From Polyangiaceae bacterium (GTDB lineage Bacteria; Myxococcota_A; Polyangia; Polyangiales; Polyangiaceae), in contig JBNKBE010000023.1 of assembly GCA_050287085.1 (NCBI GenBank), positions 36,168 through 100,167 on the forward strand: a DNA stretch of 64,000 bases, given 5' to 3'. The notes beneath the pieces were generated by a model that was not told where the DNA came from, made no database searches, and saw only the letters and a program-made list of their open reading frames with translations. The number at the start of each line of letters is the position of its first letter. Position 1 is the stretch's first letter. Of this stretch, positions 28,109 through 51,867 are shown piece by piece. Made by a program: the position numbers and the translations under genes.

Positions 28109-29239
28109 TCAGGCCACATCCGATGAGCTCGCCGTCCCAAACTCCATCGGAGGCAGGAACGTATCGTAGAAGAACTTGCAGTCCCGACGAATCTGCTCCT
28201 CGGTCCACCCGTACTTGGCAAGATCGTACTTGTGCTCCGACTTGTAGGCGCGCTGCTTGTCCGCACGTGCCTTCACCCTCGCTCGCAATTCCGGGGTCAT
28301 GTCCTGACCGAGAAACGAGCACATCTCCTCCATCAACCCATCGAAGTCGGCCATCATTCGATCGTAGCGCACGACAAATACCCGACTCCGATCGATCGCT
28401 CCGGACTCCCAGTCTTCGTGGAACCGTCGAAAGAGCATGACCCAGGCGTTGTAGATGCGATCCAACCACCGGCGCCGCTCCGCTTCCGGCTTTGACCAGA
28501 AGCCGAAAGCACGGTCAACGACGCCGATCACCAGGCTTGTTGCGCTCGGGATAACCGACAGCGGATCGCGCGCCATGTACAGAATCTGCGCGCCCGGACA
28601 CTCATCGAGGAAACGCGGCAAGCGCGCCGAAAGGGAGAAGAGCTTCGCCACGTTGCGCTCGCCGCCGTGAATAATCAAGCTGCGCCGCCACAACTGATCG
28701 AGCCAAGCAAAATCACGCTTCGAAGTGTCGCGCTCGCGCGGGTCCACCAGGTGCTGAAGCTCCTCGTCGGCGAACGAAAGGAAGAATCCGTACAGAAACA
28801 GACCATCCAGATAGCGAAACAGAACCCCCACATCGTCCGTCTCTACGGAGCTCAGGCTCGTATGATGGACCGCGTCTGAGTGAAATTTCGCCGGGCTCAC
28901 CTTTTCGAGCAGAGGCAAGAAGGGCCGGAGCACCTTCTGCAGGACAAGCGACGGATAGAGCATCAGGAAGAGCTCCATTCCAGAGCCAAATCCCTCATCC
29001 GACAAGAATCGCTGCAAGAAGGTAGTGCCTGTGCGGGGGTTGCCCACCAAGACGATGGGGCGAGCCGCCCGCGTCCGCCTCAGTCTGGGAAAGAACAACA
29101 CGTCCAGCCGCATGAACAGGCCGACGATGCCCCGCAACAGAAGAATTGCGGGAAAGATAAACAGCGGCGCCACGTAGACGCCGTGGTTCTTGCGAAGGAT
29201 GCGATAGACGCGACCCATTCGCGAGAGCAGTGTATCCAT
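28109..29239 (-). CDS. PAPS-dependent sulfotransferase with N-terminal membrane anchor
   Basis: 5'-PSB motif GNPRTGTTFL, 3'-PB motif RDPLSVIPS, C-terminal HKYDLAKYG; ATG 29239. Confidence 0.9.
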   Translation of the reverse strand: MDTLLSRMGRVYRILRKNHGVYVAPLFIFPAILLLRGIVGLFMRLDVLFFPRLRRTRAARPIVLVGNPRTGTTFLQRFLSDEGFGSGMELFLMLYPSLVLQKVLRPFLPLLEKVSPAKFHSDAVHHTSLSSVETDDVGVLFRYLDGLFLYGFFLSFADEELQHLVDPRERDTSKRDFAWLDQLWRRSLIIHGGERNVAKLFSLSARLPRFLDECPGAQILYMARDPLSVIPSATSLVIGVVDRAFGFWSKPEAERRRWLDRIYNAWVMLFRRFHEDWESGAIDRSRVFVVRYDRMMADFDGLMEEMCSFLGQDMTPELRARVKARADKQRAYKSEHKYDLAKYGWTEEQIRRDCKFFYDTFLPPMEFGTASSSDVA

Positions 29240-29583
29240 AGCGGGAGTTCTTCTCGGGTGATGGCTCCGCAGCTCGAAGCCGGCGCAGTTCAGTGGAGCG
29301 TCACCCCCCGGAGGGAAGACGCCGCAGGACATAGCGGAAGCCGCGGTCCGCTCATACCCTTAGCTTCTAGCCTTGCGTCGCCGCCCCAAGCAACAGTTTT
29401 TGCGGTCGAGCGGCGAGTAGAGCTCCCTACCCGCCGAGTCCACGTTTAGCTAAAACAATCAGCCAGCACGCGACTGCATCGACCGCCACTGCGTCGATAT
29501 TTTGCGACCCAAATCCGGGAGCTCCGGAAATGCCATAGCGGGCCTCGCGGCGTCGCCTCGTGTCACCCGCAGCGGCGTCGGGC

Positions 29584-30474
29584 TCAGTTGCGCTCGAGAT
29601 AAGCCTGCTCGAACCAAGCGTCCGCCGGTTTCGCCGTAGCAGAGACTTTCACCGTCTCGAAGATGGAGCGACGCCCATTCTTCTTGTTCACCATTTCCAT
29701 GCGCATGGCGCGGTATCGCTTCTTCTGGGGGTCCAGCAATTTGACATTGGAAGTCGTCAGCTCCTTGATAGCGACACCGTCCAAGTCGTAGTAGAGCCCC
29801 TTCCGGATGACATGGCTCGCCTTGCTCACCCAATACAGCTTCTTGGAATAGCCTTCGCCTTCCGCAACCGCGTCGCTCTTCGGCTTCACCTCGACGAGGT
29901 AGCAGGGCTCCCCGCCCGCGGCCTCTTCCTTCACGACCGCATAGCTGAAGTCGTCAAGGGTCGGCACATTGATGTCGGCGTAGCTAAACTCGCTTCCCAT
30001 GAAGCTTCGCGATCGCGCGGAGCTGACGATCCTGCGAACCTTCCGGAGCGCGGGTAGGAAGACCCACGTCTCGTCATCCTTCGATGCGTAGTCCCATACG
30101 AGCACCCCGGTACCCTGCTCGTCCCCGGAAAGAAACTTGTAGACGCGCTTCTCAGTCTGGCCGCCGTCGAAGAGCTTCGTCGCCATCTTGAGCTGAAGCG
30201 TCTGGCTCTGACCCGCTTTGTTCAGCTTGGTCATTTTGACAACCGCTTCCGAAGCGTCCAGCTTTCGAGTCGTCGCCACTTGCTCCATGATAGCTCTTGG
30301 GTCGGGTGCGGCGGCGACAAGCGACACATCCATCATCCCGAAGCCCAGCATCGCCCCAAGACCTACACGGGCTACGGCGCGGGAGGTGGCCAATGCGCTG
30401 GCCGTGGCCACCGCGCTCAATAGACCGCGACACGTCGACGAAACGGCAGGATGTAGGAAACTCTTCTTCTTCAT
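29584..30474 (-). CDS. LolA-like 'outer membrane lipoprotein-sorting' periplasmic protein
   Basis: DETWVFLPALRKVRRI, SFMGSEFSYAD; start MKKKSF at 30474 with GGAG SD. Confidence 0.85.
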   Translation of the reverse strand: MKKKSFLHPAVSSTCRGLLSAVATASALATSRAVARVGLGAMLGFGMMDVSLVAAAPDPRAIMEQVATTRKLDASEAVVKMTKLNKAGQSQTLQLKMATKLFDGGQTEKRVYKFLSGDEQGTGVLVWDYASKDDETWVFLPALRKVRRIVSSARSRSFMGSEFSYADINVPTLDDFSYAVVKEEAAGGEPCYLVEVKPKSDAVAEGEGYSKKLYWVSKASHVIRKGLYYDLDGVAIKELTTSNVKLLDPQKKRYRAMRMEMVNKKNGRRSIFETVKVSATAKPADAWFEQAYLERN

Positions 30475-51021: not shown

Positions 51022-51075
51022 GCATTCGATCGCTCAGAAAGGTGACTCCCGGCTCGGCGGGGTCAAGAACAAGAC

Positions 51076-51867
51076 ATGACCGACCTCCTCACTCCTGTAG
51101 CAGCCATCGCAGAGCGCGCGGCCAAAGCCATCTTGAAGATCTACGAAACGGACTTCTCCGTCGAGTCCAAGAAGGACAACAGCCCTCTAACCGCCGCCGA
51201 TCTGGCCGCTCATCGCGTGATCGTCCAGGGGCTTCAGGCGCTGACTCCTGATCTGCCCGTGCTCTCGGAAGAAGCCGCCAACATCCCGTACTCAACCCGT
51301 AGAACTTGGTCGCGTTATTGGTTGGTCGATCCCCTCGATGGCACCAAAGAGTTCATCAAGAAGAATGGCGAGTTCACGGTTAACATCGCCTTGATCGAGG
51401 GCAATACCCCGACCTTGGGAGTCGTTCATGTTCCCGTTTCACGCGTCGCGTACCTCGCAGCAGCAGGCGCAGGCTGCTTCCGCGTTGACGCTGATGGCAA
51501 ACGAACCAGACTGCACGGCCGCAAAGCTTCGCCCGAGCAGCTCGTCGTAGCGGGTAGTCGCTCACACGGTGGCGACGCACTGAAGAGTTTCACGGACAAG
51601 CTTCCCGGTCAGGTTGAACTCGTTGCCCGCGGAAGCTCTCTCAAGTTCTGTTTGGTGGCTGAGGGTGCCGCCGACATCTACCCCCGCTTTGGGCCAACGT
51701 CAGAGTGGGATACCGCAGCGGCCCAATGTGTGGTTGAGCAGGCTGGAGGCCAAGTGGTTCAGACAAACTTCGAACCACTCGCCTACAATGCGAAGGCTGA
51801 CATTCTGAATCCGCATTTCCTAGTAATCGGCGATCCGTCCTACGACTGGGGCCAGTACTTGCCCTAG
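51076..51867 (+). CDS. cysQ: 3'(2'),5'-bisphosphate nucleotidase CysQ
   Basis: SPLTAAD, LSEE, DPLDGTKEF, GSSLKFC, EWDTAA. Confidence 0.96.
   Translation: MTDLLTPVAAIAERAAKAILKIYETDFSVESKKDNSPLTAADLAAHRVIVQGLQALTPDLPVLSEEAANIPYSTRRTWSRYWLVDPLDGTKEFIKKNGEFTVNIALIEGNTPTLGVVHVPVSRVAYLAAAGAGCFRVDADGKRTRLHGRKASPEQLVVAGSRSHGGDALKSFTDKLPGQVELVARGSSLKFCLVAEGAADIYPRFGPTSEWDTAAAQCVVEQAGGQVVQTNFEPLAYNAKADILNPHFLVIGDPSYDWGQYLP

Follow-up and report, generated by a model that had tools for sequence, protein, structure and literature searches.

A Polyangiaceae gene cluster for a probable sulfated lipid that may carry sulfate across the envelope to arylsulfotransferases

The sulfate donor 3′-phosphoadenosine-5′-phosphosulfate (PAPS) is confined to the cytoplasm. 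Cpz6, the type III polyketide synthase (PKS) of caprazamycin biosynthesis, reportedly makes pyrones. The accessible text of two sources (PMC6731281, PMC13426309) establishes for caprazamycin a pyrone-mediated relay from a PAPS-dependent sulfotransferase (Cpz8) to a PAPS-independent arylsulfotransferase (ASST; Cpz4), and the accessible part of the second describes most bacterial ASSTs as enzymes whose natural donors and roles are undetermined. Here we describe a cluster of 17 genes (positions 28109 to 51867) in a 64,000-nucleotide stretch of the genome of a soil myxobacterium of the Polyangiaceae (assembly GCA_050287085.1, contig JBNKBE010000023.1, positions 36,168 to 100,167; hereafter the window). 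We found that its sulfotransferase (ST), its ketosynthase (KAS) and a lipoprotein that we call LP1 are co-inherited with a subfamily of ASSTs, and from this gene content we lean, by a modest degree, to the reading that the cluster makes a sulfated lipid that would be shuttled across the envelope as the sulfate donor of those ASSTs.

As in caprazamycin biosynthesis, a condensing enzyme, a PAPS-dependent ST and a PAPS-independent ASST are inherited together. Whereas the caprazamycin carrier comes from a type III PKS, the present loci encode free-standing two-chain KAS III enzymes (ACP_syn_III) of two classes; their ST is a membrane-anchored Sulfotransfer_3 protein, their ASSTs are envelope lipoproteins or bear tails for the type IX secretion system (T9SS), and a Gram-negative lipid traffic set is added (MMPL, LolA-like, DUF1302, FadL and TPAT, START or chalcone-isomerase [CHI]-like proteins), but no antibiotic (liponucleoside) scaffold genes recur. 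Because type III PKS and scaffold genes are lacking, the cluster is not a member of the caprazamycin type, although by analogy the balance tips slightly toward its working like that two-step sulfation, stretched across a membrane.

Other described systems share parts of the locus. The window KAS has its best match among solved structures in 3row/3s21 (E 1e-19), which we take to be OleA of X. campestris, and keeps the Glu, Cys, His and Asn of that enzyme; no OleB, OleC or OleD was found in the window cluster or among its recurrent neighbors, no genome-wide search having been made. Mycobacterial sulfolipid systems (SL-1, S881) combine the Stf family with MmpL export, and the present cluster resembles them in a weak Stf-type match of its ST, an MMPL exporter and a cysDNC-type PAPS supply, but it has none of the trehalose, PKS, acyltransferase, sugar scaffold or NodABC genes of SL-1 or Nod factor synthesis, and it comes with ASSTs and diderm Gram-negative carriers. 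The cluster is not an OleABCD cluster, and it is not of the SL-1 or Nod-factor type. PpyS/PyrS and MxnB/CorB are likewise two-chain ketosynthases with a Glu in one class only (PMC4578411, PMC4901931), but the accessible text of those sources describes neither sulfation nor an ASST, and the present loci lack PKS modules. The AssT-DsbL-DsbI system of E. coli has a periplasmic β-propeller ASST with the same active-site set; it has no linked donor-making genes, its natural donor is undetermined in the accessible part of PMC13426309, and DsbL/DsbI are missing here. TPAT/TatT modules and AmeABCD/DUF1302-DUF1329-RND modules use the same lipid-traffic protein families (PMC11713862 and PMC6394551, in their accessible parts), but here these are wired to sulfation, with TPAT optional. 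We found no description of the cluster in the literature, including PMC12766979, in a search that left subscription journals and supplements outside its scope.

An initial annotation of this DNA had named two divergent arms, and we confirmed all 17 genes at their listed places and strands and under correct names. The left arm, all on the minus strand, runs LP1, FadL, TatT, DctP, DctQ, DctM, LolA-like, ST; the right arm, all on the plus strand, runs from LP2 to cysQ in the order given below. Start codons lie later than those of the longest open reading frames (ORFs) for ST (29239), LolA-like (30474), TatT (35024), LP1 (37679) and KAS (38971).

28109..29239, minus: PAPS-dependent sulfotransferase (Sulfotransfer_3, E 4e-18), core; N-terminal membrane helix, 5′-phosphosulfate-binding (5′-PSB) and 3′-phosphate-binding (3′-PB) motifs
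29584..30474, minus: LolA-like periplasmic carrier (PF17131, from Pfam), core; 44/75 loci
30629..32098, minus: DctM of TPAT (family match), optional module
32095..32790, minus: DctQ of TPAT (family match), optional module
32809..33816, minus: DctP (TatP) of TPAT (family match), optional module
33900..35024, minus: TatT lipoprotein (TAtT, PF16811), optional; relatives show it in alternation with a chalcone-isomerase-like protein
35050..36594, minus: FadL/OmpP1 outer-membrane channel (FadL/Toluene_X), core; start codon uncertain, ORF to 36672
36621..37679, minus: LP1 lipoprotein, no Pfam family, core, usually adjoining an ASST; lipobox-like ATSC, C-terminal CxxC..PAP
38085..38765, plus: LP2 lipoprotein, no Pfam match, optional; 9/60 near loci
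38971..40011, plus: OleA/PpyS-type head-to-head ketosynthase (KAS III), core; Glu104, Cys129, His265, Asn295 (numbered from 38974)
40049..41584, plus: DUF1302 outer-membrane barrel (Pfam), core; 37/75 loci
41850..44180, plus: MMPL/HAE3 RND inner-membrane transporter (family match), core; 24/75 loci
44240..46036, plus: lipoprotein metallophosphoesterase, purple-acid-phosphatase-like, optional; 8/60 near loci
46281..47180, plus: cysD, ATP sulfurylase subunit 2, sole genome copy; above NCBIfam cut-off
47180..49102, plus: cysNC, ATP sulfurylase subunit 1 fused to adenosine-5′-phosphosulfate (APS) kinase, sole genome copy; above NCBIfam cut-off
49213..51021, plus: SLC13/CitMHS permease with TrkA-C domains, likely for sulfate uptake, optional; 1/60 near loci, also in the G418 cluster
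51076..51867, plus: cysQ, phosphatase of 3′-phosphoadenosine-5′-phosphate (PAP), above NCBIfam cut-off; a DHH/DHHA1 protein instead in most relatives

The genome (G000; 6.2 Mb, 96.8% complete) carries the cluster on contig C23, and every cluster gene is single copy except LP1, with a paralog on contig C9, and the SLC13 gene and cysQ, with distant paralogs. The GC content of the cluster (0.59 to 0.65) and that of third codon positions (0.67 to 0.77) both match the genome, so nothing marks the cluster as an island recently acquired from elsewhere.

We compared 75 loci reaching 10 kb to either side of relatives of the ST (50 to 74% identity), many of which end early at contig ends. The neighbors of the ST were cysNC (48 loci), LolA-like (44), DUF1302 (37), LP1, FadL and KAS (36 each) and MMPL (24), and this linkage is kept although gene order is heavily shuffled; together with near-complete co-occurrence across genomes, its survival argues that the genes have not gathered by chance. 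The initial annotation had taken all 17 genes for one system, to be abandoned if they proved unlinked in related genomes. They are linked, and its view stands for a core conserved together across many genomes of Polyangia type (ST, KAS, LolA-like, DUF1302, FadL, MMPL and LP1, with cysDNC also recurring), whereas membership is optional for TPAT, SLC13, cysQ, LP2 and the metallophosphoesterase. Clustering of all ORFs gave three recurrent genes that have no counterpart in the window cluster, encoding an ASST (35/75), a DHH/DHHA1 protein (41/75) and a 220-residue secreted protein, U18 (29/75). Protein searches returned generic names only.

Genome by genome, the same partners recur. The order sample of 151 genomes has the ST in 7 and the KAS, the LP1 profile and the ASST profile in 6 each, these being the identical six genomes, at an ASST cut (E<1e-90) that was set after a gap had been seen (the next genome lies at 1.5e-37, and 17 genomes pass at 1e-15). 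The seventh ST (genome G028) is 36% identical. Among the 301 genomes of a phylum sample, which shares four carriers with the order sample, we found the ST in 41, LP1 in 33 (31 with ST), a KAS of the window class, defined by a catalytic Glu, in 17 (16 with ST), and a second, MxnB/CorB-like class in 34. Either class occurs in 40 of the 41 ST carriers and in 7 of the 260 noncarriers; 12 carriers have the Glu type only, 24 the MxnB/CorB-like type only, 4 both (10.9 expected if independent) and 1 neither, tallies that overstate independence since ST-linked loci were the source of the profiles (G317 contributed to the MxnB/CorB-like one) and the genomes are kindred metagenome-assembled genomes. Thus, the ST, the ketosynthase, LP1 and the ASST subfamily are co-inherited, with three nonorthologous swaps: between the two KAS classes, between CysQ and the DHH protein, and between TPAT and the chalcone-isomerase-like U18.

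The ASSTs (PF05935/PF14269) are also frequent in a second set of 101 dereplicated loci of at least 8 kb, where 33 of the 60 near loci and 24 of the 41 distant ones contain them; in the distant lineages they are the commonest neighbor. The window genome encodes three, all off-cluster (C9:83998-85671, C9:32835-34544 and C36:12072-13754). The first lies directly upstream of the LP1 paralog, the pair (C9:83998-87055; L076:8014-11056) sitting beside thrS, far from the cluster, and LP1 and an ASST lie within 500 bp of each other in 14 of the 23 loci that hold both. Among solved structures, the best match of the ASST profile is 9kf4/9kf6 (E 1e-24), listed as “Sulfotransferase,” and the profile also matches EcAST, the E. 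coli AssT (3elq). The active-site set given in the accessible part of PMC13426309 is His252, His356, Asn358, Arg374 and His436, and the ASST at C9:83998-85671 keeps equivalents of all five along with a lipobox-like motif. ASSTs of L003, L031, L032, L034, L043 and L066 form a subgroup without most of the catalytic residues and are possibly binding proteins. LP1 has no Pfam or NCBIfam family and an Atlas search for it was blank; its predicted model (pLDDT 93) has two β-sandwich domains, for which fold searches (Foldseek, VIA-align) returned generic β-sandwich matches only (best Z 5.9). A role for LP1 as a tyrosine sulfate carrier was rejected, as there is no invariant Tyr; the positions that vary little or not at all are Trp, Gly and Pro residues and the CxxC.

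The initial annotation called the condensing enzyme OleA-like, a description borne out by the best sequence match among solved structures and by equivalents of the OleA set Glu117, Cys143, His285 and Asn315, but not by the NCBIfam OleA family, whose cut-off of 285 bits the window KAS (140 bits) does not reach. It also has the catalytic Glu and Cys-His-Asn triad of PpyS/PyrS, a set shared with OleA and so not diagnostic. At distant ST loci, the KAS is of the other class, with best solved matches 4v2p, presumably MxnB, and 4yuc (CorB); its hosts are Ignavibacteria (L070), “Cytophagia” (L072), low-GC loci (29 to 40% GC) and other Myxococcota. The Glu was found in 44 of 44 window-type copies and in 0 of 18 MxnB/CorB-like copies, in line with its presence in PpyS/OleA and absence from MxnB/CorB (PMC4578411, accessible text). 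The dereplicated set has a KAS inside 33 of the 60 near and 19 of the 41 distant loci, and both classes together in 0 of 101. On the ST tree (FastTree, rooted on L089), Glu-type KAS accompany one deep clade and the Polyangia clade, with the MxnB/CorB type between; L147 has an MxnB/CorB-like KAS inside the Polyangia clade. At the root locus, in G028, an MxnB/CorB-like KAS gene is followed by a fatty-acid-hydroxylase gene (L089:7007-8678), near a divergent ST.

According to the accessible text of PMC4578411 and PMC4901931, the OleA-like Glu enzymes PpyS and PyrS and the Glu-less MxnB/CorB all condense two chains to α-pyrones. The recurrent cluster members of the 75 loci include no reductase, OleB/C/D, acyltransferase or glycosyltransferase (one glycosyltransferase is confined to four closely related flanks), so the hydroxyl for sulfation should come from the condensation itself. 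Since both KAS classes are able to form a 4-hydroxy-2-pyrone, which carries a hydroxyl without any reductase, we infer a dialkyl 4-hydroxy-2-pyrone as the product, at roughly even chances.

The ST was described at the outset as membrane anchored, and indeed it has one N-terminal hydrophobic helix; it is the only PF13469 match in the genome. Of 101 relatives, 96 keep its 5′-PSB motif (GNPRTGTT) and all keep its 3′-PB motif (RDP.....S), and the window ST weakly matches structures 2zq5 (E 1e-5) and 2z6v (E 3e-3), which we take to be mycobacterial Stf1 and Stf9. The genome of G187 holds five copies of the family, and at L012:8058-10001 and at L203 the gene immediately before an ST of the family encodes a membrane-bound sulfatase-family protein in place of a ketosynthase.

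For PAPS supply, cysDNC is the only ATP sulfurylase detected in the genome, a search for the Sat type having given nothing. The gene for PAP removal is DHH only in 41 of the 75 loci, cysQ only in 6, both in 0 and neither in 28. The known PAP phosphatase activity of NrnA and the mutual exclusion with CysQ suggest that the DHH protein (weak DHHA1 match; RecJ at E 0.09) is likewise a PAP phosphatase. Removal of PAP by either of two enzymes and never both fits a forward flux through the ST, and in E. coli the yield of sulfation increases with cysDNC plus cysQ (PMC6731281, accessible text). PAPS supply, PAP removal, ST, condensing enzyme and lipid traffic together point to a sulfated lipid, as had been proposed.

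The TPAT is complete in one operon (TatT, DctP, DctQ and DctM). TatT-like genes occur in 138 of the 151 order genomes irrespective of the cluster, and TPAT lies near the ST in only 2 of the 75 loci. The idea that it is an unrelated bystander was dropped, as longer regions place it within the cluster itself in four genomes (the window genome, G403, G404 and G418); in G421, TatT lies beside cysQ. In a hand-picked set of 26 cluster genomes, whose completeness is mixed or unknown, 19 have U18 and 7 lack it; TatT was found in 3 of the former and in all 7 of the latter. U18 lies away from the cluster in G404 and G418; it has a confident structure model and no Pfam or PDB sequence match, and its Atlas features resemble Chalcone_3 clusters (0.93), which is a lead only. 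As TatT and U18 alternate and the myxobacterial TatT family binds long-chain fatty acids (PMC11713862, accessible text), FadL with either protein likely forms an inward arm. LolA-like, DUF1302 and MMPL proteins make up the core of the proposed transport route; the distant loci add START-domain proteins (16/41) along with FadL, LolA-like and MMPL.

Our preferred sequence of events would begin with uptake of sulfate by the SLC13 permease and synthesis of PAPS in the cytoplasm by CysD/CysNC. From two acyl chains, the KAS would build a lipid that bears an acidic hydroxyl and is probably the dialkyl 4-hydroxy-2-pyrone; the membrane-anchored ST would sulfate this lipid while CysQ cleared PAP. MMPL would move the sulfated lipid out, and the LolA-like protein and DUF1302 barrel would carry it to the outer membrane. 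ASST lipoproteins would take the sulfate on the equivalent of His436 and pass it to an envelope or extracellular acceptor, with LP1 as a dedicated partner; in the window genome, this step would fall to the three off-cluster ASSTs. FadL and TatT/DctPQM, or the chalcone-isomerase-like protein, would serve to import acyl precursors or to recover the carrier after desulfation.

Several observations weigh against this relay, besides the kinship of the genomes behind the tallies. The window's own cluster has no ASST, the second C9 ASST (C9:32835-34544) has lost R374, and the active-site residues were kept unevenly in 36 full-length ASST copies, some of them same-locus duplicates (H436 in 30, H252 in 30, H356 in 26, N358 in 31 and R374 in 17). 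No acceptor-making genes recur among the cluster neighbors, and ST relatives at L012, L037, L039, L059, L219 and L222 have no partner nearby. The closest solved match of the window KAS, OleA, makes a β-keto acid and not a pyrone. As the only ATP sulfurylase of a genome that also encodes cysH and NIR_SIR genes, cysDNC may feed cysteine synthesis as well. Finally, the direction of DUF1302/LolA-like/RND transport is disputed, with export in C. defragrans (PMC6394551, accessible text) and export or esterase hypotheses for DUF1302/RND modules (10.1101/2020.07.04.188060).

The strongest competitor, which we nonetheless consider unlikely, is that the sulfated lipid is an end product, a membrane sulfolipid or secreted signal that the ASSTs and LP1 would bind, remodel or desulfate. 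A complete export apparatus to the outer membrane, a window cluster devoid of ASST and the ASST subgroup short of catalytic residues would all suit it, and photopyrones do act as signals (PMC4578411, accessible text). However, the ASST subfamily is limited to the same six of 151 genomes and is often multicopy, 30 of 36 copies retain the catalytic His, its genes are the commonest neighbors in distant lineages, and no receptor or regulator recurs among cluster members in the 75 loci. The initial annotation had proposed a sulfolipid or signal by the logic of Nod factor or SL-1; the sulfated lipid remains, but because the ASSTs are core and co-inherited, the best reading shifts from such an end product to a sulfate shuttle of the caprazamycin kind.

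An inward relay for sulfur scavenging appears improbable. The ASSTs, whose reactions are a reversible ping-pong (PMC13426309, accessible text), would strip environmental aryl sulfates onto the carrier, FadL/TPAT/MMPL would import it, and the ST in reverse would make PAPS from PAP. That FadL and TRAP are import systems and that DUF1302/RND modules are tied to hydrophobic substrate use would be in keeping with this, but a PAP-destroying enzyme (CysQ, or DHH with its putative activity) in 47 of the 75 loci and the ATP-consuming cysDNC in 48 both oppose reverse flux, and scavenging could be served by the sulfatase-like genes of the genome, of which there are at least six.

Still less probable is an olefin route, with sulfation-elimination of the curacin/Ols-like kind as its precedent, in which an OleA-type β-keto acid would be reduced by a housekeeping reductase, sulfated and then eliminated to a long-chain olefin or kept as an alkyl sulfate. 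The OleA match with its residues intact agrees with it, and the absence of OleB/C/D leaves room for another activation route; however, no reductase or thioesterase recurs, and the route accounts neither for the ASST/LP1 co-inheritance nor for the 24 of 41 ST genomes in which a Glu-less MxnB/CorB-like enzyme takes the place of the OleA-type KAS. A chance assembly, in which housekeeping cys genes and a TPAT for fatty acids in general lie loosely beside envelope genes that have nothing to do with them, might be suggested by single-copy cysDNC, the wide occurrence of TatT and several intergenic gaps of 150 to 410 bp within the cluster, but is largely refuted for the core by linkage that persists through heavy shuffling and by near-complete genome-wide co-occurrence, although possible for SLC13, LP2 and the phosphoesterase.

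Some loci depart from the common pattern. In G418 (L011 and L223), the cluster is expanded to more than 35 kb; it contains two copies of the Glu-type KAS gene and several pairs of ASST and LP1, and also TPAT, SLC13 and cysQ. Low-GC loci (L067, L151-L172) carry a recurring block of ASST, ST, START-domain protein, a secreted protein of ~500 amino acids (aa), a leucine-rich-repeat protein with a T9SS-type tail and ASST, with a patatin-POTRA-Omp85 gene also at L067. In Ignavibacteria (L070/L093), KAS, ST and cysC lie among at least six T9SS-tailed ASSTs. Around the window cluster, the left border is a core block on the plus strand (22113-27230: tsaB, a tgl/pilW-like TPR lipoprotein, rodZ-like, recO, murJ and yihA). 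A single-copy 238-aa ORF (27287-28003, minus) with a lipobox-like motif follows 105 bp downstream of the ST on the same strand; it has no Pfam or NCBIfam match, adjoins the ST in 0 of 75 relatives and is probably outside the sulfation system. To the right, both on the minus strand, are a Fibro-slime/PA14 lipoprotein with myxobacterial cysteine-rich repeats (52118-54202) and a 1,185-aa TSP3/CglD-like protein (55815-59372).

On the shuttle reading, the cluster would identify the two enzymes that make the donor, the route that transports it and the enzymes that receive it. From the exchange of one two-chain ketosynthase for another, unrelated one, the chemical class of the donor can be predicted. 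More tentatively, and with less confidence than we give the relay itself, a recyclable dialkyl-pyrone carrier may be a general, cross-phylum route by which Gram-negative bacteria export activated sulfate. Conceivably, a membrane-bound PAPS sulfotransferase would load it, a dedicated MMPL/LolA-like/barrel route would take it outward, surface or secreted ASSTs would discharge it onto envelope glycans, proteins, prey or substrate molecules, and FadL/TPAT would close the loop. Such a route, speculative as the parallel is, could be the sulfate counterpart of the lipid carriers of extracytoplasmic glycosylation or phosphoform transfer. If true, this would provide a PAPS-fed sulfate shuttle usable in biocatalysis, assign functions for the first time to LP1 and to the DUF1302/LolA-like and START/CHI-like carriers, and explain extracytoplasmic sulfation in myxobacteria and in bacteria of the Ignavibacteria and low-GC marine types.

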